A stretch of DNA of 64,000 bases, taken from Candidatus Fermentithermobacillaceae bacterium (GTDB lineage: Bacteria > Bacillota > Sulfobacillia > Fermentithermobacillales > DUSS01). The notes under the pieces were generated by a model, which was not told where the DNA came from, did no database searches, and was given only the letters and a program-made list of their open reading frames with translations. Shown here in pieces: positions 15,517 to 41,657 of this stretch; position 1 is the stretch's first letter; each line of letters starts with the position of its first letter. The position numbers and the translations under genes were made by a program. The stretch spans positions 4,358 through 68,357 of the forward strand of contig JADBKE010000007.1 in the NCBI GenBank assembly GCA_014896535.1, in the 5' to 3' direction.

Positions 15517-15548
15517 CCCCTATGGCTCGTAACTCCAGAGATGCGGAC

Positions 15549-16559: not shown

Positions 16560-16993
16560 AGCTCTCCCCCCACGTCGGCGTCCTGCTCTACGCCGAGGAC
16601 AGACTGAGCAAACCGCTTGTACCAGACAAGCGCGGCCAATACCCTCCTCGACAGATGCATATATTCCTCGAGGTCCGCCTTGCGGCTGCGGTCAATAAGC
16701 TTTTCCCGGTTTTCCAGGCCGACTACGCCAGCAATATGCTCGAGCAGTGCCTTCCCGGCATCACCCCCGCGTGCGTCAACGAAGGCCAACGCCTGGGCTA
16801 GTCCCGCCGTGCGTATGAGTACAGGTAACTTGTGTGCCAGTGAGCCGTATTTGTCGCAATAGTCTTCATTTATGATGTTACTGACCTGCTTGTAGATGTG
16901 CAGAGCGTACTCCTGGTTACGTGTCCGCACGGGCCATCCCTCCCACGAGCGTAAGCCTGCATAAGCCATGGCCGACTGTGGCCTTGCCGCCAA
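16556..16993 (-). CDS. cmr5: Cmr5 (Cas11 small subunit, type III-B)
   Basis: 145-aa alpha-helical protein lying between cmr4 and cmr6. Start likely at the internal Met. Confidence 0.6.
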   Translation of the reverse strand: MAARPQSAMAYAGLRSWEGWPVRTRNQEYALHIYKQVSNIINEDYCDKYGSLAHKLPVLIRTAGLAQALAFVDARGGDAGKALLEHIAGVVGLENREKLIDRSRKADLEEYMHLSRRVLAALVWYKRFAQSVLGVEQDADVGGEL

Positions 16994-17798
16994 TCTGCAG
17001 AGGTTTCTCGATCAGGCGGGCCAGAGTCCGGAATACTTCGTCGGGTTTTGCCATCACGGGAATCGCCGCTACCAAACCGTACAGGATTGTCTCGGCCGGC
17101 AGCATTTCTTCGTACCACAGCCCACCCCTCTCCACGGTCTTGGACTGCTCCTGCAGCCTGATTCTCGCCACTACCTCGGTAGCTGTGTCGAGCAAGAAAC
17201 TCATCACGTCGTCATCAACTATGCAAAACCGCCCCGTAAGCGTCTCCTGCCAGTACGCATCGCCGGGGAATACTTGCTTACCGACCCACTCGGCCCATGC
17301 CCGAGCATCGTCTGTGACAGCTGCCCGCAGGTCAAGGTCTTCTAAAATGACCTGTCCGTTGTGAACAATCGGGGCTTTTTCTTGAGAAACGATGCACATC
17401 CTTCGTTCGCCGGGCGATGGTACGTCTGCGGGGATTCCGGTAATTCCTGCGGCCTGCGCATCGCGGACAAGTCGCCGCAAGATAAACGGAGAGGTGACCC
17501 ACGCAAACGTCCCGATGAGGCTTCGTACCGGCATTAGCAAGAGCCGTTGGTCGGATACTTGAATCGAGCCTGCGTGCTCGTGCGCATAGTCCGTGTCCGG
17601 ACCGAACACCCTTTTCCGTAGGTCCTTGTCATCACAGGCATCCCGCAGAACGCCTTTGAGCGATGAACCGGGCAGGTATGGAATACCGGTTGACTTTTCT
17701 CGCGCAACAGGTAGGTCTATCACTCCCGTACCCTGCCCGGTACCCGGGTGCAGGGGCGACAAAGCATGTACAAAGAGAAGACGGGCGTTCACCACCAT
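16917..17798 (-). CDS. cmr4: Cmr4 (type III-B Cas7 backbone subunit)
   Basis: SPLHPGTGQGTGVIDLPVAREKSTGIPYLPGSSLKGVLRDA is the canonical Cmr4 N-terminal motif. Confidence 0.85.
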   Translation of the reverse strand: MVVNARLLFVHALSPLHPGTGQGTGVIDLPVAREKSTGIPYLPGSSLKGVLRDACDDKDLRKRVFGPDTDYAHEHAGSIQVSDQRLLLMPVRSLIGTFAWVTSPFILRRLVRDAQAAGITGIPADVPSPGERRMCIVSQEKAPIVHNGQVILEDLDLRAAVTDDARAWAEWVGKQVFPGDAYWQETLTGRFCIVDDDVMSFLLDTATEVVARIRLQEQSKTVERGGLWYEEMLPAETILYGLVAAIPVMAKPDEVFRTLARLIEKPLQIGGKATVGHGLCRLTLVGGMARADT

Positions 17799-17808
17799 GA
17801 CCTCCTCG

Positions 17809-19086
17809 TTAAAGAGTTTCTAGGAAAGCATCTAGAATGTCTTTCTTACCGCGTAGCGGCCGTATCATTTTGGCCTCTTCCGGAGTGAGAAGCGCCTCGA
17901 CAGGCACGTAGGGGAGCTTATCCAGCACAAGGTCGCCGGGGGGAAGGCCCGTGCCGTCGAGGACAATAGCCACCCCGACACCTCGGTCTCCGTCGCAAGC
18001 CAACGGGCGAAGTATCAACGGGCTAGCCAGCCGCTCGTAGTTCCTACCTCGTAAGATCACATCTTGTAGATTCTGGCCTCTGAAATGAAACACGATGGGC
18101 AGCCCAAATGCCGCCCTGGGGACTTTGATGACTGCTGGGGTACTCTTCGGCGGCGCTCCGGACGTCACAGCACGTATAGCACTTGCCTCCGGCCAGTCGC
18201 TCCGGCCGCGGCCCGAACGACCTCCCCGGCTCTGGCGAAATTCCCTAAGACGTGAAATAAGGTGTTCCCACGCCTCCCATGCGCTCGGTTTCGCACCGGT
18301 GATCCTCATCCTCGGTGTCGACGAGAGGTGCGGCACACCGCTTGGCCACTTGAGTGTGCCCGAAGCTTTCGGCTCGGTGCAATCGAGGTGCTCAGCGAGC
18401 TTTTGCCTAATCCAATTTTCGACGTCGCGAGGGTCGGGGAGCTTCACAGGGCAACGGTCCACGGCTACGAGTTTCAGCGCCCCGAACCCGCGCCGGGTCC
18501 GGGCACCAACGCCCCCGAAGGTTTCCCACGCCCAGAGCGCAGCCTCCACGTCTTCACTGATACGTTCGGGATAGGTGAGGGTGAGTTCGAAACTTACACC
18601 CACCCTGACCTTTCGCGCAAGCTGTCGACCCTGTGACTGCAGGGGAAAGGCAACATACGCGATGTTTTCCCAACCCTTAGCGGCCCTATTACGCGAGACA
18701 AATATCTCTTTATCCTCGCCCGCGTTTATCACCCGCACCGTAATCTGAACGTTCGAGGGGAACCCTTTCCGATCCGTTCCAGTAGTCCCCCATATCTCAT
18801 CCTCCCTCTTTTTCATCTCCGCCAGACTTCCGTTGAATCTCCCACCCCTGGTCGCCCGCCACCAAAACCGTAGCTGTCCCCGTATTTCCGTACCGCGAAC
18901 AGGCATAACGGGGTCCGGTACACCTGGCTCCACACCGCCTCCGAAAAGAGGCGTAATCAGTTCGTACTCCCGAACTTGCGTGGTCAACGCAACCTGCTCG
19001 GTGCCTACCCTACGCCGGCCCAAATGTGGGGTAACGGGCGGCGGAATGATCTCCCGGCCGCATTCGTCAGCAGGTATCTTCCTCAT
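17809..19086 (-). CDS. cmr1: Cmr1 (type III-B RAMP with two RRM domains)
   Basis: ITPLFGGG, IRGQLRFWWRA and G-rich loop GGVGARTRRGFGAL, followed by a second RAMP-like half (AAFGLPIVFHFRGQ). Its position between cmr3 and cmr4 is atypical. Confidence 0.6.
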   Translation of the reverse strand: MRKIPADECGREIIPPPVTPHLGRRRVGTEQVALTTQVREYELITPLFGGGVEPGVPDPVMPVRGTEIRGQLRFWWRATRGGRFNGSLAEMKKREDEIWGTTGTDRKGFPSNVQITVRVINAGEDKEIFVSRNRAAKGWENIAYVAFPLQSQGRQLARKVRVGVSFELTLTYPERISEDVEAALWAWETFGGVGARTRRGFGALKLVAVDRCPVKLPDPRDVENWIRQKLAEHLDCTEPKASGTLKWPSGVPHLSSTPRMRITGAKPSAWEAWEHLISRLREFRQSRGGRSGRGRSDWPEASAIRAVTSGAPPKSTPAVIKVPRAAFGLPIVFHFRGQNLQDVILRGRNYERLASPLILRPLACDGDRGVGVAIVLDGTGLPPGDLVLDKLPYVPVEALLTPEEAKMIRPLRGKKDILDAFLETL

Positions 19087-19092
19087 CCATCC

Positions 19093-20262
19093 CTACACCT
19101 CCAGGCGATGAAGCGTCCCATCCCAGACGCCCGCAGCAGCAAGACCGAATCCGTCCCGACGATCTTGGTCTTCATCGCTTACGCAACGCATCCACACGTT
19201 TTCGACCCAGGTCCGTATCGAAGTAGACTCGCCGTGAAGGCTCAGAAAGAACACAGTACCCGCCGGGACGAGGCGACGGGTCGGTTTGGCCTCCCCTTTC
19301 TCAACGTCCCACCCGGATACCACCTGGGGCCCGCGGAGCGCCAAAGCTCGAAGACATGGCGTTACTCCGAAGCGCGATGATAAGAGCCAAAAAGGTTTCC
19401 ACCCTTCCCTGAAATACGCCGGGGTGAGAAGTACCACCCGGCAGTGTCTCTGTGCCGCAATTTCGTCCTTCAATTCGCTGGGAAGGGGTGGGAGATCCCT
19501 TTTGCTTCTCCTCCAAAAAACCAGGCGCCCCTCGCCACCCAAACGCGAGACTCCCGGTTTGAGCTTGTTAGCATCGGTGGCGACTACCAGAGCCAAGCGC
19601 CGCGCGCCTCGGAGCGAGGGCTTCGCCCGCACGTAAGTAAACTCAAGTCCACGGGTTTGAAACAAAGCTCCGTTCTCCTCGTCAGCGGTGAGGGTGTCGG
19701 GTCTTATTCCTACGTGCATCCTCGATTCTGCTCCCGGGCCGTCAAAGCCAATATTGGCAACCACGTCCTCCACTTCCCGGGGCTCAATGAGCCACCGTTC
19801 GAACGAGCGCCACGACCAGAACCGGGGAGCTCTTTCATAACTCTTCCGTGGGTCCCGAACCGATAATCCAACAGGGACCAAACCGTCGGGAAGAGTGGTC
19901 TCGGTCCCTGGGGGCAGTTGGAGCGGAACACAGGGTCGTATCACAACCTTGCCAGGAGCAGACTCCGCCGCCTCAAACAGCACAGCGTCGGCCGGGGCGG
20001 GAGCGTACCAATCCGCGACGTCCCCGTCATCGTCGAGTTCAACCAGGAGTGGCCCACGGACTTCCAACTGCTTCACTCTGGGGATTTCGGACTTTGCAAA
20101 GGCACCGCACGCGTCAAGACCATCCCGCGTCCGGACAGCGCCTGCGATCGTCGAGGGAAAGGGGAACGGCAGTGACAACGCCCGTGCCCCCGGTGTACGG
20201 CCGAACGGTCGACCATCCCGAAAGATAACCGGGTCTCGCGGTTCTATCACCCACACATTCAT
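19093..20262 (-). CDS. cmr3: Cmr3 (type III-B Cas5-family subunit)
   Basis: N-terminal IEPRDPVIFRDGRPFG is a Cmr3 hallmark. Lies immediately downstream of cas10. Confidence 0.8.
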   Translation of the reverse strand: MNVWVIEPRDPVIFRDGRPFGRTPGARALSLPFPFPSTIAGAVRTRDGLDACGAFAKSEIPRVKQLEVRGPLLVELDDDGDVADWYAPAPADAVLFEAAESAPGKVVIRPCVPLQLPPGTETTLPDGLVPVGLSVRDPRKSYERAPRFWSWRSFERWLIEPREVEDVVANIGFDGPGAESRMHVGIRPDTLTADEENGALFQTRGLEFTYVRAKPSLRGARRLALVVATDANKLKPGVSRLGGEGRLVFWRRSKRDLPPLPSELKDEIAAQRHCRVVLLTPAYFREGWKPFWLLSSRFGVTPCLRALALRGPQVVSGWDVEKGEAKPTRRLVPAGTVFFLSLHGESTSIRTWVENVWMRCVSDEDQDRRDGFGLAAAGVWDGTLHRLEV

Positions 20263-22112
20263 GCTGGTTTCACCTCCCGACTCGGTTCGGCAGGAAAAGA
20301 TCTACCGGCGAGATCTGCCGCCTTTGCGAACTCGCGAGCAATAATGATTTCGTCGGCAATCTGTCCGATGACTTGGGCTGGTTCTTCGCCGTCTGAAAGG
20401 GCGTTTCTGATCTCGGTCAGCAGTTTGTTGAGCGTCTCCCCGGCAATTGGCTCTAAGCCATGCCGCTGTCGTTTGCGGCTGATGATGCGCTCTACTTCAA
20501 ACTTTAGGACTTCCTTCACTTGCTTCACATTTTCACTCGACTTGGTCTCCCCCTGCGAGTCCTTAAACTGCATGGCCAAATCGCGCAATTCATAAGCCGC
20601 ACCGTCGGGAAGTGCGTCAGCTTGATGGAGAAATGCAAACCACTCGAGGCGACGGTCAAGCTCCCCCCAGCGACCCCTCACCGTTCTGTCCGCCCCGCTC
20701 CGCTTACTCAGGGTGATGCCGAGTGCGTTCTTGCCCTTTATCGACTTGGCCGCCCTTTCGGCATCCCGAGCCAGTTGGATGACGTCGGACAACGGTGCCA
20801 GGTGATGAGCAATGGCGATACCGACCGAGAGCGTGGGTGTGATTGTTTCGTTGTCCTGTACGACGCTAAAGTCTCTTAGCAAGCTGCCAAACGTTTCGGC
20901 GAGCGACCTTGCACAGTCCAGGACGGTATGTAGGGGAACGAACGCCAGAACATCGTCGCCTCCCGAATATACGAGCGAGCCATTGTGCTTTTCCACTATC
21001 TTTTTGGCTTCGCGGGCAAACCGACTTTGACAACTGGAAAGGTTCCGGTGTGCTTCGCAGGTCTTTTGGGCATCGATGACCTTGCCCATGTAGTCGCCAT
21101 CCGCGAGCAGAAGCGCGTAGTAAGGCAACGGTTCTCGCTCCCCGCAAGCGTCTTTCAAGAAGCTACGTAGCGCCTGTCTGGCCTTGGCAAACTTCTCTTT
21201 TTCGGGGAAGTACTCTCGCAAGCGTTGCTCAAAGAGTAGTTCTCCGTCGTTGCTGCCAAAGACAGGGTGCGGAGGTTGCACCGTCCCAAGAGCGTCTTCC
21301 AGGATACCAAGCGTTTTTAGCTCTTCGATATACCTCTTAACTAAAGGCACATCCTTGCTCTGAAGCCTATCCAGCAGCGGAAGCGCTGCCACATGCGACG
21401 TACTCAAGAAGTGTTCCTTCGCCTCGCGCCTACCGTGGCGCTTAAGCAGGCACACCCCACATAGGTGCTCACCACGCCGCACCCCATAGTCTCGGCGGAG
21501 TCTCTCATCGTGGTTCTCTCCCCGTTCGTCTTCTGTCGCGTGCGCTTTCGCTGGAATAACCGACTCCCGAATCCCGTCCAACGAGCACTTTGGTGCACTC
21601 CTTCCCCAGGAAACCGGGCCAAACTCTCGCGTCAGCTTCCGTGCGCTCAGCGCGGCCTCCGCGAGCTTTCGCGCCAGATCGTAATCGCTATCCCCGGTCA
21701 AAGTCGAAGCCGCCCAGTAAAACTCAATCAAGTCGTCCACCTGCTTCTCGGCGACGTCACGGGCGAAACTCCCTTTCACCTGGCAGTACGCTTCGTCTCG
21801 TAACTTGTGAAGTCGCTCGAGGATGGCGTTGTACACCGCGTCGGCGAGTTCCCGCGGGTCCTGTTTTATAAGCGCCACGATCTTGTTGGCAACGTTAAAC
21901 TCCTCGGACTCTAGGTCCTCAGGGCCGGCCGGTGCCGGAAACACTAGGCACCTAATATCTCCACCGTTTATCTTCACGATCTTCAGGGCCGCGGCTTTAG
22001 CCAATTCGCTTAGCATCCACGAGCCAAACCAGAGGTCCCGACTACGTCGTGCCGTCGCGATGAATTCCTGAACTGGCCCTATGTGAAAAATGACGAGCTT
22101 CGTCCCGCCCAT
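20259..22112 (-). CDS. cas10: Cas10/Cmr2 lacking HD domain, cyclase palm with GGDD motif
   Basis: 617 aa with N-terminus VIFHIGPVQEFIATARRSRDLWFGSWMLSEL (Cmr2dHD-type). Palm motifs LLLADGDYMG and YSGGDDVLAF are intact, and there is no HD signature. Confidence 0.85.
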   Translation of the reverse strand: MGGTKLVIFHIGPVQEFIATARRSRDLWFGSWMLSELAKAAALKIVKINGGDIRCLVFPAPAGPEDLESEEFNVANKIVALIKQDPRELADAVYNAILERLHKLRDEAYCQVKGSFARDVAEKQVDDLIEFYWAASTLTGDSDYDLARKLAEAALSARKLTREFGPVSWGRSAPKCSLDGIRESVIPAKAHATEDERGENHDERLRRDYGVRRGEHLCGVCLLKRHGRREAKEHFLSTSHVAALPLLDRLQSKDVPLVKRYIEELKTLGILEDALGTVQPPHPVFGSNDGELLFEQRLREYFPEKEKFAKARQALRSFLKDACGEREPLPYYALLLADGDYMGKVIDAQKTCEAHRNLSSCQSRFAREAKKIVEKHNGSLVYSGGDDVLAFVPLHTVLDCARSLAETFGSLLRDFSVVQDNETITPTLSVGIAIAHHLAPLSDVIQLARDAERAAKSIKGKNALGITLSKRSGADRTVRGRWGELDRRLEWFAFLHQADALPDGAAYELRDLAMQFKDSQGETKSSENVKQVKEVLKFEVERIISRKRQRHGLEPIAGETLNKLLTEIRNALSDGEEPAQVIGQIADEIIIAREFAKAADLAGRSFPAEPSREVKPA

Positions 22113-23123
22113 AATCTTCCTGCACTCCTCCTTTCCTCAAGAACTCTGGCAACCGACCTCCTCTTGTCCCCGCCTTTTCCTCGCCTCCTCCGGTACGGCT
22201 TGCAGATTTACGATCTCAGCCACTTCAAAGCGCGGTGGAAACAGAGCCCGGAACAGACCGAAGCCACACCACACAGCAAGTGACCAACAACCACCCCACG
22301 ATCTCCACAACTTTGCGCCATGCTGAAACACGCAAGTTGGGGGCTGTCGCTCAGCGTCCGCCCCGACGCGCCACGAAGTAGAAGGTCTGCAATAGCACTG
22401 TATGTCTCCCTGGGCTTGGGTGAAACTCCGCAAGCTGGGTCGTACCCTTTAGAACGAGCTCCACCTCGAAAAGTTGGTTGAGCTGTTCCTACATCCACAA
22501 CGCCTAAACACAACCGCGCAGTATGTCGGCAGACGGCGGATCAGCACGATCCTGGCTAATGTTTCTCCGCTCTGGGTTATGTTTCCTTCCCTAGGAGGAC
22601 CACCGTGACGAAATATTCGGTCCGCTTTCGGCACGAACTTGCTTCACCTGACATCACAGCGGACTAGGCCTGACACGCTTGATTTCACCCGCATTCTACT
22701 GGTGGCACTCCCGCCATCGTTCAAGCTCGTCCCCCTCCTTTCTCTCAGGAAGAGGCCACCAATGCGCTCCACAGTCTTCGTCTAACGGGTCATTCCGCGC
22801 CTGTGGTCCGAATTGCCACCGAAACGGGGCTGTCTGACCAGCTGTCAGAAAGTCATTTTTCCCGCCACTCCTTTCAAGTGAGATCGATCTCAAACCGGAC
22901 CCCAACTCTTCATAGGCCCTGATCCCAAATTCGCTCGCGACAGCCACATAAGCGCGAAAAACCGTTTTTCAGGATCGTGAAAACCCGAACGAGCTCTCCG
23001 CTTTCCTTCCATCGCGGTGCCGGTGATCTCAGGCCGTTGTATCCGCCAATAATGTCGCCATCAGCGTAGTTCGTCTGGGCTGTTAGACTTTTCTGGCAAA
23101 GGCTCCAGTGGGCCCAGGGAACG

Positions 23124-23234
23124 CTCTCAGTTCCCCCTGGCTAGCGGTTCTGACTGCAACATCAATGAGGTAATCAAGCAATGCAAGACTTACGAAGCTT
23201 TCAGTCCCCTCTACCTCGGGGTTCTCGCTGCCTT
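23124..23234. CRISPR. two degenerate CRISPR repeats (trailer-end remnant of the large array)
   Basis: 23124-23160 ctctcagttccccctggctagcggttctgactgcaac and 23198-23234 ctttcagtcccctctacctcggggttctcgctgccttg are separated by a 37-nt spacer. Both have the same length and register as the array repeat, with several mismatches. Confidence 0.6.
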
Positions 23235-23354
23235 GTCACCTTGCACATTAATCTTCCGGGTTTAGCAGTTCCCTCTGTCACATTACTCTAGAATCTTGCC
23301 AATCCCTCTCTCGAGCAAAGTGATAATTTCTTTTCAGTTTGCTGTGGGAGGAGA

Positions 23355-23705
23355 ATGGCTGTGCAAATTCTCTGGAGGGCGCCAATCTCGCTTGAGGAGT
23401 ATGCTTCCCTGGGGAGGGCAGCAGAGTTCCCGGTTCCCAGGGAATGTGCTGCCTGCGGAAGGAAAGTGAGCCTGAAGCGCCACGGGTGGTGTCGGAGGTA
23501 CGCGGTGAGGCAGGACATCGAAGTACAGGTCTGGATTCCGAGGCTTCTGTGCCCTGCGTGCGGCAGGACTATTTCGCTTCTACCCTCGTTCCTCCTCCCC
23601 CGGTTTCAGCGGACGGTGGAATTCATCGTCAAGGTGCTTGGAAAGAACGTCTCATGCTCAAGGTGTACCGTCTCACGTTTTCCTGACCGAGTTGTCTCAG
23701 ATTGA
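23355..23705 (+). CDS. transposase-associated zinc-ribbon protein (truncated paralogue of 26389-26916)
   Basis: CxxCG...C..C pattern and the LPSFLLPRFQRT motif are shared with the 175-aa ORF at 26389-26916 (LPWFLAPHRP...). Confidence 0.45.
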   Translation: MAVQILWRAPISLEEYASLGRAAEFPVPRECAACGRKVSLKRHGWCRRYAVRQDIEVQVWIPRLLCPACGRTISLLPSFLLPRFQRTVEFIVKVLGKNVSCSRCTVSRFPDRVVSD

Positions 23706-23768
23706 GATGACTTTTGCGTGACACAAAGAAGGCTGCCCTGGAAGGAGCGGCAGCCGCCGGGTTAGGTT

Positions 23769-24581
23769 TCAGTTCCCGTTCAAATCCTGGATCACCCTGA
23801 GCACCAGCTTCTGGTCGATGAGTTCTTTCTGCTCGATGAAAGCGGCCAGGAGTGAATTGGCGCACACGTGGTTAATGCGCCTGGGGATGCCGCGGGCGTA
23901 CTGGAAGATCTCCTCGATGGCCTCCGGGGTGAACAGGGGCGAGGTACGGCCTGCCACTTTGAGGTGATGGGCGATGTACTCCCTGGTTTCCGGGGCGGTG
24001 AGTCCCCGCATGTGGTACCGCACCATGAGCCGCTGGGTGATGTGGTCGTAGCAGGAAAGCCGGAGTCTGTCCCGGAGTGGGGTTTGTCCCACGAGGATGA
24101 GCGCCATGGGACATGCGCTGTCCATGTCGAAATTGGTGAGCAGCCTCAGTTCTTGGAGGCTGGTCTCTGGTAGCAGGTGGGCGTCGTCGATCACGACCAC
24201 CGGGGTCTTTCCTTGCTCGAACACGGCCCACAGGGTATCGGCGAGCTGCTTCACGGTGTCCGATTTGTGGTAACGGGGCTCCACGCCGAGGCCCAGGAGC
24301 AGTTGGCGGTAAAGCCCCCGAGCGGGGAGCAGGGGATTAGACAAGGTACAACCAGCGTGACCTGAGTGGGTCCAGGGAGGCACGCAGGGCTCGCAGGCAA
24401 GTAGACTTTGCCCGAGCCCACGTCCCCTGTTAGGAGGGCCATGCCCCTCTGCATGACGGCCCAGTTCAGGCGGGCCAGCGCCTCGAGGTGGTCCTGGGAA
24501 GGAAAGAGTTGGTCCGGAGGAAGGTCCCGGCCAAATGGGGTGCGGGTGAAGTTGAAGAAAGCTCTCGTACATGCTATTCAC
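23769..24581 (-). pseudogene. TniB/ExeA-like AAA+ transposition ATPase, frameshifted
   Basis: The C-terminal two-thirds align with the intact paralogue at 28143-28943 (VVIDDAHLLP, ALILVGQTPLRDRLRL). The Walker A motif (LLTGDVGSGKV) is encoded in a different frame (24251-24454). Confidence 0.6.
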
Positions 24582-26364
24582 CTCCGTGTGCGTTTTCTGA
24601 TTTCCTCAAGGTAAGCCGAGATGTGCCGACCGGTGCCCAGGTGTCGGCAGGCATGTTCCAGGGCTTCCCGGCAGAGATCGATGTCCAGGGGGCCGTACGT
24701 GGCCCAGAACTCGCGGGCCTCCCTGGTTTCGGCTTCGGTGAGGTTGCGCCCCAGGCCCAGGTGCAGGAGAGCAAGGAACGGGGCCACTCCACCCGTGGCC
24801 CCGGGAAGCGAAGGTTTTGGGCAGTTCGGAAAAACGCAGGCGCTCGATTTCCTCGGCGAGGCGGTGGTCGTGCTGGGAGCGCAGGAGTTTGAGGTAACTC
24901 ATGCTGAAGCCAGGCGGGTGCAGGGGCTGTCTCGGTGCTGCGCGAAAGGGATGTCTTGTTCAGGGTTAGAGGGACCGCCACCTGGTAGAAGCGACCATCA
25001 ACCCACACTTCCACGCGGGTGAGGTCGAAGGGGTCGTAGCGCACCTCGACCTTCTGCCGGTCCCTGAGTTCGGGGTCCACCTGGTAGCGGTTGCTGCCTA
25101 TACGTATGGTGGCGTCCTTCCTCACCGTGCGGGTGTCTCGGGTGAGGAAGAGGTTGGCCAAAGCCACGGGGTCGGGAAGTTTGGGTGGCTTGCGGAAGTA
25201 GCGGTCGCGGGGAGGCTCGCCCGTCTCCGAGTGGGGCCTTCGATGGTAGTCCTCCTCCAACCAGGCCCAGAAGTAAGCGTTGGCCTCTTCCACGGTCTTC
25301 ACCTCTTCCCTGGCTACCAGCAGGCGAAGTTCCGGGTAGACCTCGTTCTGCACGGTCTGGTTGAACCGCTCTACCTTGCCGCGGGCGGCGGGGTTTTTCC
25401 TGCGGCCCAGGATGACCTGGATGCCGAGGGCAGCACAAGCGGCGCGGAAGTGTCGCGAAACGTGGATGCCGGCCCGGTCCACGTAGACGGCCTCAGGGAT
25501 GCCGGCCTTGGCCAGGGCCTGGCGCATGCAGTGCTCGAGGCGCGGCATCTTGCCGTCCGGGTAGAACTGGGCGTGGGGGCAGTAGCGGCTGTAGTCGTCG
25601 ATGACGACGAACAGCACGGTTTTGCGAAACTTCCCCGGCCGTCTGGGGTCGGGGAGGAAGATGCCGTCGGCCTGGTCGATCTGCCACAGTTCCCCTGGTT
25701 GTTCCCGCTCGAAGCGCTGATAGACCCGACGCGGGCCCGGCTGTCTGCGGGTGAGGCCGAGGGCGTGGAGGTGCCGGTGCAGGGTAGCCCGGGAGATGGA
25801 CCCCTTTGCCACTCCCGAGTCGGGGTCGGCCTCCAGCATCCGGATGATCTGGGGGATGGAGCGGGCGGGCAACTCCCGCTTGAGCTGGGCGGCCCGCTCG
25901 ATGAGGGCGGGGGTAAGGGCACGCGGTTTTCCCCGGTCCTTCCGGGGTTTGGGCTTGAGTGCCTCGAACCCTCCCTTGCGGTAGCGGGCCAGCCAGGACT
26001 TGAGCGTGGAAACCGACAGACGCACCTTCTCTCCGCCCGGAGCCTCCCATTCCTGGTTGGCCAGGCGCTGCAGGATGCGAGTCTGCTCGCCGCGGGGGAG
26101 TTTCCGCTGCAACAGTTCGGCTATGCACCCGTAGCGGAACAGCGCCACCTCCACCCTGCGGTCCTCGTCGTCCATCTTCTGGCACCTCCCGGCCCCGAGC
26201 GTACTACCCGGGCACCGGGACTGAATACTTCGGGTTGTGTGGGACATGCACCCGGGGACGGTGTTCTTCCTGTTTGTAGCAGCAGAGTCGGAACCCACCC
26301 AGGCATCATATCCTGGAGCAGATGGTTGCTGGTTCGAAAGGCAGCATATGGACGGGAGAGGCAT
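24574..26364 (-). CDS. Mu-like DDE transposase (rve integrase core + Mu-transposase C-terminal domain)
   Basis: 596 aa with an N-terminal HTH region, DDE core (WQIDQAD..., VVIDDYSRY, ...ERFN) and a C-terminal beta-barrel (RYQVDPELRDRQKVEVRYDPFDL). Confidence 0.8.
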   Translation of the reverse strand: MPLPSICCLSNQQPSAPGYDAWVGSDSAATNRKNTVPGCMSHTTRSIQSRCPGSTLGAGRCQKMDDEDRRVEVALFRYGCIAELLQRKLPRGEQTRILQRLANQEWEAPGGEKVRLSVSTLKSWLARYRKGGFEALKPKPRKDRGKPRALTPALIERAAQLKRELPARSIPQIIRMLEADPDSGVAKGSISRATLHRHLHALGLTRRQPGPRRVYQRFEREQPGELWQIDQADGIFLPDPRRPGKFRKTVLFVVIDDYSRYCPHAQFYPDGKMPRLEHCMRQALAKAGIPEAVYVDRAGIHVSRHFRAACAALGIQVILGRRKNPAARGKVERFNQTVQNEVYPELRLLVAREEVKTVEEANAYFWAWLEEDYHRRPHSETGEPPRDRYFRKPPKLPDPVALANLFLTRDTRTVRKDATIRIGSNRYQVDPELRDRQKVEVRYDPFDLTRVEVWVDGRFYQVAVPLTLNKTSLSRSTETAPAPAWLQHELPQTPALPARPPPRRGNRAPAFFRTAQNLRFPGPRVEWPRSLLSCTWAWGATSPKPKPGRPASSGPRTAPWTSISAGKPWNMPADTWAPVGTSRLTLRKSENAHGGE

Positions 26365-26388
26365 GGAGTCTTCCCTGTTCGAGATGGG

Positions 26389-26916
26389 TTACAGCCAGAT
26401 GGGGGTGTCCTCCTCAGCGCTGGCACTGAGGTGGACGTTGCACCACCCGAGCGGCCTTGAGGCGGGGAAATCGAGGTCGGCTTTGACGCGCCGGCAGGCG
26501 AGCCAGAAGGCAATGATGGCCGCGTGGAGGAGTTTCAACTTGTCGCCGGTGAAAGGGCGCAGGAGAGTGTCCAGTTCAAGTTCGGGGTCAAGCCGCCTGG
26601 CATCGCGGGAGAGCATGGCCACGACCCTGTCCGCCAGGTTGCGGATGCGGCGGATCCAGCGCTGGAGGGTGGATGGGGAAACCTGCGTGATGGCGTTGGC
26701 CAACTGGTACCAGGAACATCCCCTGAGGCGGAGGCGGAACGCCCTGTCGACAAGAGCCATCAGGCAGGGCCGGTGAGGTGCGAGGAACCAGGGGAGCACG
26801 GCGTGGGTTCGACGGCATCCGGGGCAGCGCACCCTTCGAACCTTAACACCTATCTTACGCCAGTACCATCCGTGGCCCTGCAGTTTCCGTCCGCACTTCG
26901 GGCACTTGCGGAGCAA
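26389..26916 (-). CDS. transposase-associated zinc-ribbon protein
   Basis: 175 aa starting MLRKCPKCGRKL...RCPGCRRTHAVLPWFLAPH. It is the first gene of the IS unit, followed 25 bp later by the transposase. Confidence 0.5.
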   Translation of the reverse strand: MLRKCPKCGRKLQGHGWYWRKIGVKVRRVRCPGCRRTHAVLPWFLAPHRPCLMALVDRAFRLRLRGCSWYQLANAITQVSPSTLQRWIRRIRNLADRVVAMLSRDARRLDPELELDTLLRPFTGDKLKLLHAAIIAFWLACRRVKADLDFPASRPLGWCNVHLSASAEEDTPIWL

Positions 26917-27284
26917 AGCTGCTCGGGCTTCCTCATCGCCCGACTCCGTATCTATCGTGCCAGCTCTTGTACTCCTTGACGTTGGAGCCCAGGTTCCTTA
27001 CGATGATCAACGGGATCTGGGTTCTACCCACAACCAACACAGGCCTCTTGCGCTTCGGAGCCGTGGCAAGAGGCCTGATCTTTCTCCGCCCAGGCAGAAC
27101 CCCGTAGGAAGTTCCTCACCCTATCCAGTTTTTCCTTTTGGTCAGCCTAATGTGAGACAAACCGGCTCATTCAGGTCAAAACAATCTGCGACGGTACACT
27201 CAAGGGAGATTGCGGGGTTCTACTGAAACAGGCTCTTGAAAAACATCAACCGGATACTCGCGTTTTTACCGGTTCCTGAAGGCC

Positions 27285-28139
27285 TTGGCGCTGGCAGGTC
27301 CCAAACAGAGAAAGGAGCCGGGAAGAAAGAGGTTCGCCTACGAAAAGGTCAACGCCATGTGGCAGGCGGACATCTCCTCGGGTCCTTACATCAAGATGGG
27401 CAAAAGAAAGGTTCCGACGTTCCTCTTCGCCTTTCTCGATGACGCGTCAAGGCTCGTGCCCTACGCCCTGTACACCCCCAACCAGGGGTTTGATTCCCTG
27501 AAGACTGTCTTCAAGGAGGCGCTGTCCAGACGGGGCATACCGCAGATGATCTACGCCGACAACGGGAAGATCTACACAAGCCAACAGTTCCAGTGGGTTT
27601 GCGCCTCGCTGGGCATCGCTTTAGTCCACACAAAACCCTACGACCCTTCGGCAAAGGGGAAGATCGAGAGATTCTTCCTCTCGGTCAGGCAAAGGTTCCT
27701 CTCCGCCCTCGATTACGAAGGACTGACGCTGGATTCCCTAAACGAGTCCTTCCTCTCATGGCTTGAGAAGGATTACAACTCACGGCCCCACAGCGCCATC
27801 GGGATGTCCCCCATCGACATGTACATGTCTCAGTCCAGTTCCCTGAAGATGCTGGACGACCCGTCGGTCCTGGAGCCTCTTTTTCTTCGAAGGGAAATCC
27901 GCAAGGTGCGTCACGACTCCACCATATCCGTGCAGAACCATCTCTTCGAAGTGCCTCCGGCGCTCGTCGGCAAAAGGGTGGAGGTCAGATTCGACCCAGA
28001 CGATTTGAGCGAAGTCCTCATCTACGACGAAGGCGTGGAGGTGGCGAGGACAAGACCAGTAAATCTCCACGAAAACGCCAGGGTCAAAAGGGAAAAGCCG
28101 GCTCTTCGTCTGTCTGAACTCGATGCACAGGAGGAATGA
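27285..28139 (+). pseudogene. Mu-like DDE transposase, 5'-truncated copy
   Basis: 284 aa aligning to residues ~205-596 of the 24574-26364 transposase (WQADIS..., FLDDASRL, ...ERFF). The N-terminal DNA-binding region is absent. Confidence 0.65.
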
Positions 28140-28142
28140 ATC

Positions 28143-28943
28143 ATGTACAGGGCATTCTACTCGCTTTCTCAGGACCCGTTTACCAAGGACATTCGGCCTC
28201 AGGACCATTTCCCTTCGAGGGGGTTCAAAGAGGCCTTGGCCCGCATCAGGTACCTCGTGGAGACCAGAGGCATGGGCGTGATCCTCGGCGAGCCCGGCTG
28301 CGGCAAGACTTATGCCTTGCGGTCTGTGGCGGAAAGCCTGAATCCGTCCCTCTACAGGACCGTCTATTTGCCTCTCTCCACGGGAACCACCATGGACATG
28401 TACAGGGCGATCGCAGCCGGTCTGGGTGAGGAGCCTCGCTTTCGGAAGGTGGACCTTTTTGGCCAGATCCAGAAGGCCGTCGGGCATCTGTACTATGACA
28501 AGAAGATTACCCCCGTCTTCATCATGGACGAGATGCACCTCGCCCGCTCAGACTTCCTCCTCGACCTGGCCATGATCTTCAACTTCTCCATGGACTCGAA
28601 AAACCCCTTCGTCCTCATCCTGTCGGCCTTGCCTTTCTTCCAATCCCGCCTCAGACTCAACCAGGCACAACCCCTGGCGCAGCGGATCATCGTCCAGTAC
28701 AAGTTCGAGCCCCTGGACAAAGATGAGGTCAAGGGCTATCTCGACCACAGGCTCAGACTCGCTGGTGCGGTGACACCAATCTTCACCGACCAGGCCATCG
28801 AGGCCATAGCTTCTCACACGGGCGGATGGCCAAGGCTCATCAACAACTTGGCATCCACGGCCCTGCTCTACGGAGCTCAACTGAAGAGAAACCCCATCGA
28901 CGAGGACATCATCCGAATGGCCGCGGAAGAAACCAACTTGTGA
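28143..28943 (+). CDS. TniB/ExeA-like AAA+ transposition ATPase
   Basis: 266 aa with Walker A GEPGCGKT, Walker B VFIMDEMH and a sensor region. It immediately follows the transposase. Confidence 0.75.
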   Translation: MYRAFYSLSQDPFTKDIRPQDHFPSRGFKEALARIRYLVETRGMGVILGEPGCGKTYALRSVAESLNPSLYRTVYLPLSTGTTMDMYRAIAAGLGEEPRFRKVDLFGQIQKAVGHLYYDKKITPVFIMDEMHLARSDFLLDLAMIFNFSMDSKNPFVLILSALPFFQSRLRLNQAQPLAQRIIVQYKFEPLDKDEVKGYLDHRLRLAGAVTPIFTDQAIEAIASHTGGWPRLINNLASTALLYGAQLKRNPIDEDIIRMAAEETNL

Positions 28944-29207
28944 GCCTGTATCGGGTGGCCACCTCCGCGGTTACTGTTCTTCTGGGTCCGGTCTCCAGCC
29001 GGACGCAACCGTTTCATCCGGTCCATTCGAAAAAGGTGCTCGCAACCACCAGACGACTGTGCAAAACCTCCGCCAGACGCGACCATCCAGAGTGAAAATG
29101 GCGAATTACCGTGGCGTAAGACGGCTATTACAGTGTGACAAACGGGGGCGGAGTTAATTCGAAAAATGACACCTTTGGGCAGAAAATTTACGTGGATGGA
29201 GTTCTAA

Positions 29208-32200
29208 CTTTCAGTCCCCTCTACATCGGGGTTCTCGCTGCAACTGGTACCTGCCCGAGAGAGAGATCCCTGACCTCTTCTTTCAGTCCCCTCTACATCG
29301 GGGTTCTCGCTGCAACTCAGTGGCGAAAGAACAAGCTGATGCGAGCAGAAACCTTTCAGTCCCCTCTACATCGGGGTTCTCGCTGCAACACGAGGAGACC
29401 GACATAACAAGACTCGGGCTCGAAGGCTTTCAGTCCCCTCTACATCGGGGTTCTCGCTGCAACCGCCAGTCCAGTGGCGGGGTCGCACAAAACATCCGGG
29501 CTTTCAGTCCCCTCTACATCGGGGTTCTCGCTGCAACGCGATTCCGCAACGAACTTGACTTTTGTCGCCAACATCTTTCAGTCCCCTCTACATCGGGGTT
29601 CTCGCTGCAACCTGAGCCGCATCGACAGCCAGGAGCTCTCCGAGTGGACTTTCAGTCCCCTCTACATCGGGGTTCTCGCTGCAACTGATAGAACGCGGCC
29701 GGACCGAGGTGGCCCGCGCCGACTTTCAGTCCCCTCTACATCGGGGTTCTCGCTGCAACTAAGACTCTCTTCCGCGATTGGTACGAAGTCAACAGCTTTC
29801 AGTCCCCTCTACATCGGGGTTCTCGCTGCAACTGAGGCGACGGCCCTCAGACAGCTTCTTGAGTGCTTTCTCTTTCAGTCCCCTCTACACCGGGGTTCTC
29901 GCTGCAACCCTTCTGCGTGTCAAGCCAGTGGTAACCGTCCTGATCTTTCAGTCCCCTCTACATCGGGGTTCTCGCTGCAACCGTTATCAGAAAAACGGGC
30001 CATGGTCTGCCTTCGCCTTTCAGTCCCCTCTACATCGGGGTTCTCGCTGCAACAGTGCTGGGAGGTTGTTTGCAACATCCAACCAGACGCTTTCAGTCCC
30101 CTCTACATCGGGATTCTCGCTGCAACGAATTGCGGCTGCTGTCAGAGAAAGACCCAGGCCATCAACCTTTCAGTCCCCTCTACATCGGGGTTCTCGCTGC
30201 AACAGTGCTGGGAGGTTGTTTGCAACATCCAACCAGACGCTTTCAGTCCCCTCTACATCGGGATTCTCGCTGCAACGAATTGCGGCTGCTGTCAGAGAAA
30301 GACCCAGGCCATCAACCTTTCAGTCCCCTCTACATCGGGGTTCTCGCTGCAACTCAGGCTCGCCAACAGTCAAGCCAGGCTGCCAGAGCTTTCAGTCCCC
30401 TCTACATCGGGGTTCTCGCTGCAACGCAGGTGATAATGCTGGCGGAAGTGACCGTCGCAACTTTCAGTCCCCTCTACATCGGGGTTCTCGCTGCAACCCG
30501 GCTGCGGTATGAGCCTGAACTTGGCCAGCTAGCTTTCTTTCAGTCCCCTCTACATCGGGGTTCTCGCTGCAACTTCATTCTCCTGTCGATGCGGAAACCA
30601 TTGGCCAGTGTACTTTCAGTCCCCTCTACATCGGGGTTCTCGCTGCAACCTACATCGACCTTCTGCCCAGTCTCAGGATTAACACTTTCAGTCCCCTCTA
30701 CATCGGGGTTCTCGCTGCAACTCGAACCACCTGACGAGCTCCGCATAGCGGGCTCGCCTTTCAGTCCCCTCTACATCGGGGTTCTCGCTGCAACCAGTTC
30801 ACCATGCAGGGGTGCAAAACCGGCGTAAACTTTCAGTCCCCTCTACATCGGGGTTCTCGCTGCAACAGTTCGATGACTCGCGCAAGGCACGAGATATGCA
30901 GCCTTTCAGTCCCCTCTACATCGGGGTTCTCGCTGCAACCCTTCGCGAGGTGCAGGTAGATGTACCCGGTCACGCCTTTCAGTCCCCTCTACATCGGCGT
31001 TCTCGCTGCAACCAAGGCGTCGAATACGAATCCGACGACCAGGGTCCTTACTTTCAGTCCCCTCTACATCGGGGTTCTCGCTGCAACAAGCGCATGACGC
31101 TCGGGTTCTCGGGGCTGCCCTTCCCTTTCAGTCCCCTCTACATCGGGGTTCTCGCTGCAACCTCCGGAAGCAGGATCTCCGTGATCACGCCGTTCTTGGC
31201 TTTCAGTCCCCTCTACATCGGGGTTCTCGCTGCAACCAAAAGATGGAGCTCACGCAGCGGTTCTTCAGGGCTTTCAGTCCCCTCTACATCGGGGTTCTCG
31301 CTGCAACGCGCCGGGGTAGGCCGCCGGGCACGGCCCGAGCGGCTTTCAGTCCCCTCTACATCGGGGTTCTCGCTGCAACTCGCAATCGCACTAGGGACCG
31401 CGCACCCAGTAAAACACTTTCAGTCCCCTCTACATCGGGGTTCTCGCTGCAACTCAAACTATGCGCGTCGAAGCACCTCTTCTAATTACTTTCAGTCCCC
31501 TCTACATCGGGGTTCTCGCTGCAACGGCGGGTGCCGGATTATGGCTCCGGCGCGCCAGATTTGCGGCTTTCAGTCTCCTCTACATCGGGGTTCTCGCTGC
31601 AACAAGCTCATCCGGCAGGCCGGTAAGCCGGATGCCGAGGCTTTCAGTCCCCTCTACATCGGGGTTCTCGCTGCAACTTGACACCGAGTTCCGAGATGGA
31701 CCGCCTCAAGGCCTTTCAGTCCCCTCTACATCGGGGTTCTCGCTGCAACGAGTGGTCGTGTGAAGACGTGCATTTATGGGCTTCTGCTTTCAGTCCCCTC
31801 TACATCGGGGTTCTCGCTGCAACCACCCGGAGGGGAAAACACTTTGCTCGTAGGATTGACTTTGAGTCCCCTCTACATCGGGGTTCTCGCTGCAACTCGA
31901 AGCGGTCATGGGCCGAATTGACTTTCCTAGCGCTTTCAGTCCCCTCTACATCGGGGTTCTCGCTGCAACGGGACAATGTATGCGGTATATGAGAACGCTC
32001 TCAGCTTTCAGTCCCCTCTACATCGGGGTTCTCGCTGCAACCTGTAGCGGCGCAGGTAGCGCCGATTTACAGCATCTTTCAGTCCCCTCTACATCGGGGT
32101 TCTCGCTGCAACGTGTTACCGGTGCCTGAAAAGCTGCAAAAAGCCATCTTTCAGTCCCCTCTACATCGGGGTTCTCGCTGCAACCTCCCGCTCCCAGGCG

Positions 32201-35200
32201 AGGAGCGTCTCAACAGTCTGCTTTCAGTCCCCTCTACATCGGGGTTCTCGCTGCAACTCACGTCGTCCTTGGTTCCCTCCAGCCCGACCGCGCTTTCAGT
32301 CCCCTCTACATCGGGGTTCTCGCTGCAACTAGTCTGGCAGTTAACTGGACAGAAGCCTTGCCTACCTTTCAGTCCCCTCTACATCGGGGTTCTCGCTGCA
32401 ACTTTATGTATTTACTCATTCGGCGCGAAAACATCCCGGCTTTCAGTCCCCTCTACATCGGGGTTCTCGCTGCAACGGGAACCAGCCAGCGTGCCGCGGA
32501 CGTGAAGTCCGCCTTTCAGTCCCCTCTACATCGGGGTTCTCGCTGCAACCCTTATCCTCCGGTTCTGTTTCAGCAACTGATACAGCTTTCAGTCCCCTCT
32601 ACATCGGGGTTCTCGCTGCAACGGTACATCGTCCGCGTAGGCGGCGAAGAAGTTCGGCTTCTTTCAGTCCCCTCTACATCGGGGTTCTCGCTGCAACACG
32701 TATCCTCGGTAACTGGGAGCACCGACTTCGTAAGCTTTCAGTCCCCTCTACATCGGGGTTCTCGCTGCAACGTTATCGTGATACTGCCAGACTCATACTG
32801 TGATACATCTTTCAGTCCCCTCTACATCGGGGTTCTCGCTGCAACGCTAGCTAGGCGCTCGGCTTCGATCGCAGCCGGCGCAGCTTTCAGTCCCCTCTAC
32901 ATCGGGGTTCTCGCTGCAACCAGTTTTGGATGCTGACCCCGCCTTGATGCCTGACCCTTTCAGTCCCCTCTACATCGGGGTTCTCGCTGCAACGTCTATC
33001 GATCTCGGAACGCTAGATTGGATGTACGTACTTTCAGTCCCCTCTACATCGGGGTTCTCGCTGCAACTCATACCGGTGCCCAGGGCCTCGACGCGACTTC
33101 CCCCTTTCAGTCCCCTCTACATCGGGGTTCTCGCTGCAACCCCGACCCGTTGCTGCCGGTTGACGAACCACTCACACCTTTCAGTCCCCTCTACATCGGG
33201 GTTCTCGCTGCAACTTTTTTGTGGGGTTCATGCTTCTTGTAATAATGCACTTTCAGTCCCCTCTACATCGGGGTTCTCGCTGCAACTTATCTTTAGCGGG
33301 GATCCCCTGGCCACAATTAGCTTTCAGTCCCCTCTACATCGGGGTTCTCGCTGCAACTGTATAGGGCCCTCGTGGTAATAACTCTGTGCTGTCCTTTCAG
33401 TCCCCTCTACATCGGGGTTCTCGCTGCAACCGCCGGACGCTGGGAAATCCAGATCCCCTTGACGCGCCTTTCAGTCCCCTCTACATCGGGGTTCTCGCTG
33501 CAACGGGCTCGGGCGCTGGCGAGACTGTGATGAAAAGAACATCTTTCAGTCCCCTCTACATCGGGGTTCTCGCTGCAACTACACAAGGTCCGGCCGAATT
33601 CTCCACAGGTACCCCCTCTTTCAGTCCCCTCTACATCGGGGTTCTCGCTGCAACTCGGGATCAACATTAATGACTTGCTGAGCTACGTCTTTCAGTCCCC
33701 TCTACATCGGGGTTCTCGCTGCAACTGTAGGAGAGGAGGGAAACTATGCTAGTTGGCTTTGCTTTCAGTCCCCTCTACATCGGGGTTCTCGCTGCAACGT
33801 ATTCCCAGTCGTCACATAGGCTTGTCACATTAAACTTTCAGTCCCCTCTACATCGGGGTTCTCGCTGCAACTAAGCGAAGTACAACAAAAGTAAGGAGAT
33901 GATCAGCACTTTCAGTCCCCTCTACATCGGGGTTCTCGCTGCAACCTTCGTTTTGGAGCCAATCCACAAACGGCTTGTTCTTTCAGTCCCCTCTACATCG
34001 GGGTTCTCGCTGCAACACGAGCTCGGCATCGGACATCTTCGCCAGGTCCTCCTTTCAGTCCCCTCTACATCGGGGTTCTCGCTGCAACCCGTTTCGCGGT
34101 CCACCCACCGGCCGGGGGCGTTTGTGCTTTCAGTCCCCTCTACATCGGGGTTCTCGCTGCAACAGGTGGCAGTCTGATGGGGGACTTCCAACTGAAATGG
34201 TACTTTCAGTCCCCTCTACATCGGGGTTCTCGCTGCAACCCCACCCGGCCTGCGCGGTCGCCCGGAATGCTGCCTTCACTTTCAGTCCCCTCTACATCGG
34301 GGTTCTCGCTGCAACACCTGACGAGTGTCTAAAGCGGATTGTGCCTCTTGCCTTTCAGTCCCCTCTACATCGGGGTTCTCGCTGCAACCGGATGCCCACT
34401 ATCGGATGCCTTGAGCCTCATCGACTTTCAGTCCCCTCTACATCGGGGTTCTCGCTGCAACTATAATTAGAACCGCGTCGACCCCGACCCGTGGTAGCCT
34501 TTCAGTCCCCTCTACATCGGGGTTCTCGCTGCAACTCTCTATGCTCATCGGTCTACACATTAGCGCAATCTTTCAGTCCCCTCTACATCGGGGTTCTCGC
34601 TGCAACACCTGGGTCCTTCGGGCCCAGGTGCGGTTGTCCAATGTTCTTTCAGTCCCCTCTACATCGGGGTTCTCGCTGCAACTAAGACGACCAGGTACCC
34701 TGCGCTACTAAGGAACCGTTTCTTTCAGTCCCCTCTACATCGGGGTTCTCGCTGCAACGGTTCCGTTTTAGAAGCCAGCTCTTTAGCCACCTGCTCTTTC
34801 AGTCCCCTCTACATCGGGGTTCTCGCTGCAACTAACGCTGTAGATGTCAGGTGTCGCATTTATCACCTTTCAGTCCCCTCTACATCGGGGTTCTCGCTGC
34901 AACATAAGTGCGTATTGCATTCACGGGCAAGATGGGCAGCGGCTTTCAGTCCCCTCTACATCGGGGTTCTCGCTGCAACCGTTTTCTTCGCATCCGCTAG
35001 TCCGCTAGAAAGAGGCTTTCAGTCCCCTCTACATCGGGGTTCTCGCTGCAACCTATCGCCAGATACCGCTGGTCGACCTTCACCTCGACTTTCAGTCCCC
35101 TCTACATCGGGGTTCTCGCTGCAACCCCGGCCAGGCCGTGCTCGGCCCACAGGTACACGTCTTTCAGTCCCCTCTACATCGGGGTTCTCGCTGCAACGCG

Positions 35201-41200: not shown

Positions 41201-41657
41201 TTCTCGCTGCAACGATTTCGCTGACGCAGTTGTAAGGTACCTGTATGATCTTTCAGTCCCCTCTACATCGGGGTTCTCGCTGCAACTTTGCCTGTATATC
41301 TCGTACTGTAAACAGATCGATTCTTTCAGTCCCCTCTACATCGGGGTTCTCGCTGCAACTGACCCGGCCCCTGGGCGAGATGATCACCACGCCGGCCTTT
41401 CAGTCCCCTCTACATCGGGGTTCTCGCTGCAACCGGGTGCCGGGATTCTGGCTCCCGGCGGGCCAGATTTCCTTTCAGTCCCCTCTACATCGGGGTTCTC
41501 GCTGCAACCCAGCATATGGGTCCCATCCCGCGCTTAACGCTCGTCTTTCAGTCCCCTCTACATCGGGGTTCTCGCTGCAACGACAGGTGGGCGCCGAATC
41601 TCATGGGCATGTTCGCCCACTTTCAGTCCCCTCTACATCGGGGTTCTCGCTGCAACC
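29208..41657 (-). CRISPR. CRISPR array, ~170 repeats of 37 bp with 35-40 bp spacers
   Basis: Repeat is CTTTCAGTCCCCTCTACATCGGGGTTCTCGCTGCAAC on the + strand. The minus-strand orientation GTTGCAGCGAGAACCCCGATGTAGAGGGGACTGAAAG gives the typical GAAAG 3' end and places the cas genes and leader at 41.7-42.1 kb. Spacers are unique apart from one duplicated block. Confidence 0.97.

Follow-up and report, generated by a model that had tools for sequence, protein, structure and literature searches.

Two nested, decayed transposons probably inserted in the old end of a CRISPR array of a Fermentithermobacillaceae bacterium

We analysed a stretch of 64,000 nucleotides (hereafter, the window) from a contig of Candidatus Fermentithermobacillaceae bacterium (JADBKE010000007.1, assembly GCA_014896535.1), which carries a long CRISPR array at 29208-41656 and a type III-B cmr operon, which has the same strand as the array and lies farther downstream. 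Between them lie two nested and defective transposons, an outer element B (23234-29171, plus strand) and an inner element A (23664-27198, minus strand), and, on the far side of B, two degenerate CRISPR repeats separated by a single spacer (23124-23234). We think that the transposons inserted in the old end of the array and cut off the two relic repeats, a reading to which we give a probability of about 0.7.

The array was delimited by scanning the window with the 37-nt consensus repeat CTTTCAGTCCCCTCTACATCGGGGTTCTCGCTGCAAC (reverse complement GTTGCAGC...ACTGAAAG). It is a minus-strand array of 170 repeats, 164 of them perfect and six with one mismatch, the latter all within the 37 repeats nearest to 29208. 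Its spacers are 34-42 nt long (mode 36), for a repeat-to-repeat spacing of 71-79. Directly past 41656, on the minus strand, are csa1, cas4 and cas1, together with the Cas7/DevR and Cas3 genes of a type I module; cas2 was found in related loci only. The adaptation genes are at this end, and the interval from csa1 to the first repeat (about 270 nt) is conserved with a sister strain (GCA_012842495.1), which places the leader at the high-coordinate end, beyond 41656, and the trailer at 29208. The crowding of the single-mismatch repeats toward 29208 agrees with this polarity. The cmr operon starts with cmr2 (22112-20259), followed by cmr3, cmr1, cmr4 and cmr6, and cmr5 was called between cmr4 and cmr6 in a Logan contig (L001) that covers the same locus.

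Outside the array, the scan returned just two other plus-strand matches with at most ten mismatches in the whole window, at 23124-23160 and 23198-23234. The second matches the consensus at 33 of 37 positions and is identical to it up to position 34 apart from a C in place of A at position 18, and the first matches at 27 of 37. Their starts are 74 nt apart, the 37-nt spacer between them is within the range of the main-array spacers, and they are on the same strand as the main array. Two degenerate repeats with a properly sized spacer had been proposed here in an initial annotation made from the letters alone, and their alignment with the consensus bears this out: the best match outside the array is otherwise 22/37 (about 103 kb, both strands), and the expectation based on composition is 2.7e-4 for a match of at least 27/37 and 7.6e-11 for the 33/37 match. 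The idea that these are chance resemblances, and that the array simply ends at 29208, can draw on the degeneracy of the copy at 23124 and on nothing else; set against these expectations, the common strand and the 74-nt spacing, its probability is negligible and we regard it as ruled out. With their identity above chance, and being on the same strand, in register and leader-distal, the two stranded repeats have the features of a trailer relic of the same array family.

Going outward at the trailer, degeneracy rises from 0 to 4 and then to 10 mismatches. The penultimate repeat (23198-23233, minus strand) carries CT instead of AA at positions 35-36 and abuts the left end of B. It is followed by the oldest spacer that was retained (23161-23197, minus strand), whose GC content of 38% is near the bottom of the range for spacers (minimum 34%) and which matches nothing else, either in the window or in the loci compared. 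The terminal and most degenerate repeat (23124-23160, minus strand) also has a C at position 18. Further relic repeats were sought at 22113-23123, with or without gaps, and none rose above background. This stretch of about 1 kb between the start of cmr2 and the last relic repeat also has no Pfam-recognisable open reading frame (ORF) and no Rfam match; the promoter of cmr may lie there, or the sequence may have eroded. Known RNAs, promoters and terminators were searched for at 22000-30000, with no meaningful result.

The DNA from 23234 to 29171 contains transposon genes only, as revealed by Pfam, NCBIfam and tblastn with an intact member of the family: two genes for DUF6431 zinc-ribbon proteins, two for DDE transposases with rve and Mu-transpos_C domains (PF00665 and PF09299, above cut-off in both), and two for AAA_22 ATPases (PF13401, 77.8 and 53.1 bits). 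The transposase and ATPase genes overlap or nearly abut at their boundary. The ATPases are named 'ExeA family' by the sources and are weakly TniB-like (Pfam TniB, 17.5 versus a cut-off of 22.4 bits). The remaining ORFs in A and B have no Pfam match. The gene content given in the initial annotation (transposase, TniB-like ATPase and zinc-ribbon genes) is thus right, but its extent is not: the transposon DNA was said to reach 29207, and it ends at 29171, the 36 nt from 29172 to 29207 being a spacer-sized remnant of the array.

The ends of element B (left end TGTCACCTTGCAC..., right end ...TTAATTCGAAAAATGACA; 2396 bp without A) are known independently of the array from the points at which homology breaks off in other metagenome copies. 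The homology of a B-like relic in two loci (L004/L005) begins exactly at 23234 (TGTCAC...), and that of a copy in two others (L002/L003), 87% identical over 27255-29171, stops exactly at 29171 (...AAAGTGACA); in both cases the flanks are unrelated. Three genes, all on the plus strand, are left in B. Its DUF6431 gene (23355-23663; PF20020, E 2.4e-8) is truncated at the 3' end and then interrupted by A, retaining residues 3-93 of the 176-aa reference at 23367-23633 (tblastn with proteins of Sutcliffiella cohnii). Its DDE transposase (27240-28139; Pfam/NCBIfam and tblastn) lacks about 117 N-terminal residues, with the helix-turn-helix (HTH) domains, and retains residues 118-408 of the reference at 27240-28115; it is the transposase that had been recognised as 5'-truncated. 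The AAA_22 ATPase (28143-28943) is an intact ORF of 266 aa, 96% identical to a database protein (P0001). The residues retained in the first two genes point to a single internal deletion of about 730 bp, which took the C-terminus of DUF6431, the intergenic region and the N-terminus of the transposase.

Two side observations concern the B-like copies. A block of about 40 nt in the DUF6431 gene (23541-23580) is almost identical across diverged copies (those of the window, L002 and L004), and the Logan contig L001 (k=31) breaks off precisely there, which suggests that there are further B-like copies in that sample. The closest copy (L002:71-3881, from a biogas fermenter metagenome) is embedded among other insertion sequence (IS) remains, with a three-gene unit of IS66, a Transposase_mut fragment of IS256 type and an ORF with HTH_32 around it; the genomes with B-like copies are rich in nested IS debris.

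Element A (3535 bp, TGTACCGTC...GACGGTACA) has TG..CA ends with imperfect inverted repeats of about 50 bp and is flanked by a perfect 7-bp direct repeat, CTCAAGG, at 23657-23663 and 27199-27205 (by alignment of the ends and direct reading). It interrupts the DUF6431 remnant of B in the opposite orientation, and is absent from the B-like copies in L002-L005 and in the sister strain (L020). All its genes are on the minus strand. When the DUF6431 gene (26389-27050) is compared with P0140, a 96%-identical copy on another contig of a metagenome-assembled genome (MAG), it shows a +1 frameshift near 26947. The transposase gene (24574-26175; rve, Mu-transpos_C and HTH_32/HTH_28) has its homologous core at 26169-24949 in one frame, and the open frame extends about 110 codons past this core, through some 300 bp without reference match, to the ATPase gene. 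This additional stretch (24574-24900) has no counterpart in S. cohnii and contains, in an alternative frame, an ORF of 98 aa (24606-24902, MSYLKLLRSQHDHRLAEEIERL...) without Pfam match. The AAA_22 ATPase gene (23769-24571; Pfam, NCBIfam, tblastn) is the one reported as frameshifted: the break is between 24365 and 24314, with residues 3-69 in frame -3 (24565-24365) and residues 86-265 in frame -2 (24314-23778).

The initial annotation had described the genes as two nested copies. The nesting holds, but the elements are different members of the family, in opposite orientations: their ATPases are only 34-40% identical. Their GC contents are about 65% (A) and 55% (B). To judge from these sequences, A and B are distant relatives and not copies of one another. 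That annotation had also envisaged a second insertion or a deletion, and both occurred. Since the target duplication of A is intact, the internal deletion of B most probably came before the insertion of A.

The position of B relative to the repeats is precise. Its left flank ends in ...GGGGTTCTCGCTGCCT; this corresponds to positions 1-34 of the repeat with CT after them, so that B abuts repeat position 36. Its right flank is CCTTTGGGCAGAAAATTTACGTGGATGGAGTTCTAA (29172-29207, minus strand), 36 nt without repeat-like content and of modal spacer length, followed by a perfect repeat. We considered whether this flank could itself be a degenerate repeat and rejected it, as there is only an 8-nt local match. 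Removing B exactly would join the 36-nt repeat remnant to the 36-nt piece in a unit of 72 nt, which is inside the range of 71-79, and B is therefore within the repeat-spacer lattice, at a repeat/spacer border. The coincidence of the ends of B with the lattice, together with the trailer position given by the conservation of the leader, supports an insertion into the oldest part of the array, as first proposed.

The flanks of B do not result from one simple insertion alone, because B lacks the 6-7-bp target duplication that is typical of the family. The ends of both elements could be defined, and a target duplication for A only. A second oddity is found in the repeats themselves. The two stranded repeats have a C at position 18, which does not occur in any of the 170 repeats of the main array, 169 of which have an A (the variant at 29872 reads ACACC versus ACATC in the consensus). 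In the array of the sister strain (L019/L020), C is found at this position in 71 of 71 repeats, and the stranded repeats thus look like the ancestral, oldest form of the repeat. The surviving main array is then wholly younger than the mutation at position 18, the older C-type units having been lost. The missing duplication and the abrupt switch from C to A suggest together that at least one junction of B is secondary, the result of a transposon-adjacent deletion or recombination that would have removed older repeat-spacer units.

Several observations weigh against an insertion into this array. The flanks of B (GCTGCCT and CCTTTGG) have only CCT in common, and removing a hypothetical 7-bp duplication from the site leaves a unit of 65 nt, which is too short. 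The break at position 18 is equally compatible with stranded repeats that come from a different array. We found no relative free of the insertion and no empty site, and the stranded spacer and the consensus repeat are absent from the JGI metagenome contigs. Among the contigs that encode related csa1/cas4 proteins, some (L031, L032) go no farther than the array, and the others belong to the sister strain, which shares no spacers with the array of the window and has different genes past its trailer. Cmr2 (MBE3518910.1, from the Candidatus Fermentithermobacillaceae MAG) and Cmr3 are singletons at 90% clustering. Finally, the source is a MAG contig, and the sole independent assembly (L001) confirms it only up to 23541.

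Part of this evidence favours another history, in which two arrays were joined through B: the C18 repeats would belong to a second array travelling with the cmr block, fused to the A18 trailer of the main array by homologous recombination between two copies of B or by a B-mediated rearrangement, and the two flanks of B would never have been neighbours. Beyond the absent duplication in a family that makes 6-7 bp and the distribution of C18, this history is favoured by the contrast between Cmr2 and Cmr3, which have no relatives at 90%, and the adaptation genes cas1/cas4/csa1, for which several biogas-reactor assemblies contain relatives of at least 90%. A scan of GTDB representative genomes with Cmr2 gave relatives of at most 45% identity, the best of them in a Chloroflexia MAG, and the cmr block (14155-22112) may be a separate and recent acquisition. 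Furthermore, the genes past the trailer of the sister strain (FMN_bind, NusG_II, FAD-binding) have no counterpart in window positions 1-29200, save for a 22-residue match at 43-105, and other B-like copies exist in the same community. On the other hand, the in-register unit of 72 bp would then require two independent insertions at equivalent positions of the lattice, or a coincidence, the gradient of 0, 4 and 10 mismatches fits a single trailer, and the window contains neither a second copy of B nor a reciprocal junction. We regard this fusion as unlikely, even if it is the most serious rival of an insertion into a single array.

A more trivial possibility is that the assembler of the MAG joined two loci across a B-like repeat. 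The origin of the contig, the missing duplication of B, and the break of the k=31 Logan assembly at 23541, inside the block that is near-identical among B-like copies, all go in this direction. Yet, an exact look-up of Cmr2 returned one Logan contig (L001, SRR24392716) that is 100% identical to the window over 13,283 bp, across the left junction at 23234, up to its end at 23541. The B-like copies elsewhere are only 74-90% identical, a divergence at which assemblers with large k would not merge them, and neither the perfect duplication of A nor junctions consistent with the lattice are expected from a chimera. These arguments make an assembly artefact quite improbable.

If the transposons did insert in the trailer of this array, we infer the following order of events. 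The array, with minus-strand transcription starting at a leader near csa1/cas4/cas1, would once have continued through the two older and degenerate repeats toward the cmr operon. Element B, originally of about 3.1 kb, would have inserted at the repeat/spacer border of the penultimate repeat-spacer unit and subsequently decayed by the deletion of about 730 bp that took the end of DUF6431 and the DNA-binding N-terminus of the transposase. Element A would later have transposed, inverted, into the DUF6431 remnant of B, making the 7-bp duplication, and would afterwards have gained the frameshifts in its DUF6431 and ATPase genes. At some point following the insertion, at least one junction of B was presumably remade by transposon-adjacent deletion or recombination, with the loss of older repeat-spacer units. 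The outcome would be an immobile transposon graveyard of 5.9 kb that parts the two relic repeats and their single old spacer from the promoter of the array, while the final main-array spacer would have lost its downstream repeat. The allele preceding B would accordingly read ...CTCGCTGC(AAC) joined directly to the spacer that ends at 29207, possibly with additional C18-type units.

The trailer of the sister strain is also disrupted. There (L020:16685-17846, DUSS01000060.1; the same in L019), the array of 71 repeats ends in a repeat cut after 15 nt, followed by a fragment of about 285 bp with a reverse-strand ORF beginning MDNITKYVALDVSKDK, which looks IS110-like but had no confirming Pfam match, and then by a B-like relic that starts at position 56 of B and points away from the array. 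Transposon debris thus borders the trailer of the sister strain too, although junction and orientation are not those of the window, and the distance of about 340 bp between the relic and the truncated terminal repeat may reflect coincidence or a complex shared history.

This proximity is the one point in favour of directed targeting, i.e., of a family that inserts preferentially or programmably at CRISPR arrays, in the manner of CRISPR-associated transposons or through recognition of the repeats by DUF6431, and the opposite orientation of the relic means that the junction is not the same. In A and B, Pfam and NCBIfam reveal no cas gene, no TnsA and no recognisable TniQ. The structural model of DUF6431 (pLDDT 82.5) matches only generic HTH folds (Z up to 7). 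The five copies in S. cohnii and those in L034, L002 and L004 are not beside repeats, and no spacer matches A, B or the related loci. We therefore hold directed targeting to be very improbable. A somewhat looser version, to which we give scarcely more credence, is that the DUF6431/DDE/AAA_22 elements are an undescribed and widespread family of three to four genes in Bacillota, perhaps drawn to array trailers in Fermentithermobacillaceae, with a DUF6431 protein that might recognise repeat-like DNA; the two non-identical junctions in two strains would be consistent with such a preference.

Two further features of the CRISPR locus were noticed. At 30017-30353, two neighbouring repeat-spacer units are tandemly duplicated, so that two spacers are each present twice, and the copies are marked by G-to-A variant repeats at 30090 and 30240. 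Between cas1 and the type I effector genes, an ORF of 209 aa (45599-46228) matches only 30 residues of the Cas3-like C-terminal domain and may be a gene fragment.

Intact relatives show what A and B would have looked like. The gene order of the family is a DUF6431 zinc-ribbon/HTH protein, a Mu-like DDE transposase and an AAA_22 ATPase. The S. cohnii sequence CP115153.1 (L025-L029) carries five identical copies of 3237 bp with ends TGTAAAC...GTTTACA, which encode DUF6431 (176 aa), the transposase (417 aa), the ATPase (266 aa) and a DUF5348 protein (86 aa); four of the five have a perfect 7-bp target duplication and one (L027) has none. Another intact copy, of 3075 bp (L034:1239-4313), has ends TGTGAA...TTCACA and a 6-bp duplication, GCGTAC. 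These members share with A and B the order of the three genes (transposases of 417-419 aa, ATPases of 266 aa), the inverted-repeat termini TG...CA, common to A and B and to both intact elements (S. cohnii and L034), and the duplications of 6-7 bp; their ATPases are 55-71% identical to that of B. They differ in being intact, whereas B has its internal deletion and A its frameshifts, and DUF5348, the fourth gene in S. cohnii, is missing from A, B and L034. The family is common, since ATPase homologs of 266 aa number in the hundreds, many of them on contigs of about 3 kb; exact look-ups of the ATPase of B, of the DUF6431 of A and of P0140 returned no record. Databases label the genes generically ('integrase', 'ExeA family ATPase'). 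In the searchable literature, just two papers, both unrelated, mention 'DUF6431', and none describing the family came up, so this appears to be a little-described family of transposons.

We compared these elements with the models of established families. An assignment to IS481 was rejected (NF033577, 197.2 versus a cut-off of 224 bits; A and B also carry two extra genes), as was one to IS21 (NF033546, 74.4 versus 160 bits; no match to the IstB model; IstA in PDB at E 1e-3). Sequence matches in PDB are marginal altogether (1e-3 for IstA, 0.4 for MuB). Tn5053/Tn402 was set aside given the TniB score below cut-off and the lack of TniQ and resolvase, and Tn7-like or CRISPR-associated transposons given the lack of TniQ, TnsA and cas domains in 23234-29171, with the 170-repeat array lying outside the element. 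Equating DUF6431 with TniQ has no support in the sequences, and the fold search returned HTH matches only. As for Tn552, a tblastn search with the ATPase on 72,556 plasmids listed Staphylococcus neither in its ten commonest genera nor in the 25 records displayed, and no resolvase is present.

The event represents genuine damage to the genome, but of an ordinary kind. Its effect on the organism would be small: an old spacer and two relics are taken off the promoter, and 5.9 kb of dead transposon separate the array from the co-directional cmr operon. The analysis is of use for annotation, as it locates the true end of the array and explains five pseudogene-like ORFs, and it provides, as a mildly useful by-product, the exact ends, the length of the target duplication and the gene order of a transposon family. 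It raises no new question on CRISPR or transposition, unless the recurrence at the trailer of the sister strain reflects a real target preference.

Insertion sequences inside CRISPR arrays are well known, e.g., IS6110 in the direct repeat (DR) locus of Mycobacterium tuberculosis and various IS elements in the arrays of Sulfolobus and enterobacteria. There, as here, the lattice is interrupted, a promoter-proximal part is separated from an orphaned distal part, and decay or rearrangement follows. The present case differs in that the insert is a nest of two defective three-gene transposons instead of a single-gene IS, and in that the outer one lacks a target duplication. The pairing of a transposase with an AAA+ ATPase is shared with Mu (MuA/MuB), Tn552 (p480/p271), Tn5053/Tn402 (TniA/TniB/TniQ), Tn7 (TnsB/TnsC) and IS21 (IstA/IstB), as are the rve core with a Mu C-terminal domain, the coupled downstream ATPase of about 266 aa, the TG...CA termini with subterminal repeats, and the short target duplications of fixed length, which are of 6-7 bp in the DUF6431 family and reportedly also in Tn552. 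In contrast to these transposons, A and B have no resolvase, TnsA or recognisable TniQ, and their first gene encodes a DUF6431 protein with a zinc ribbon and an HTH domain.

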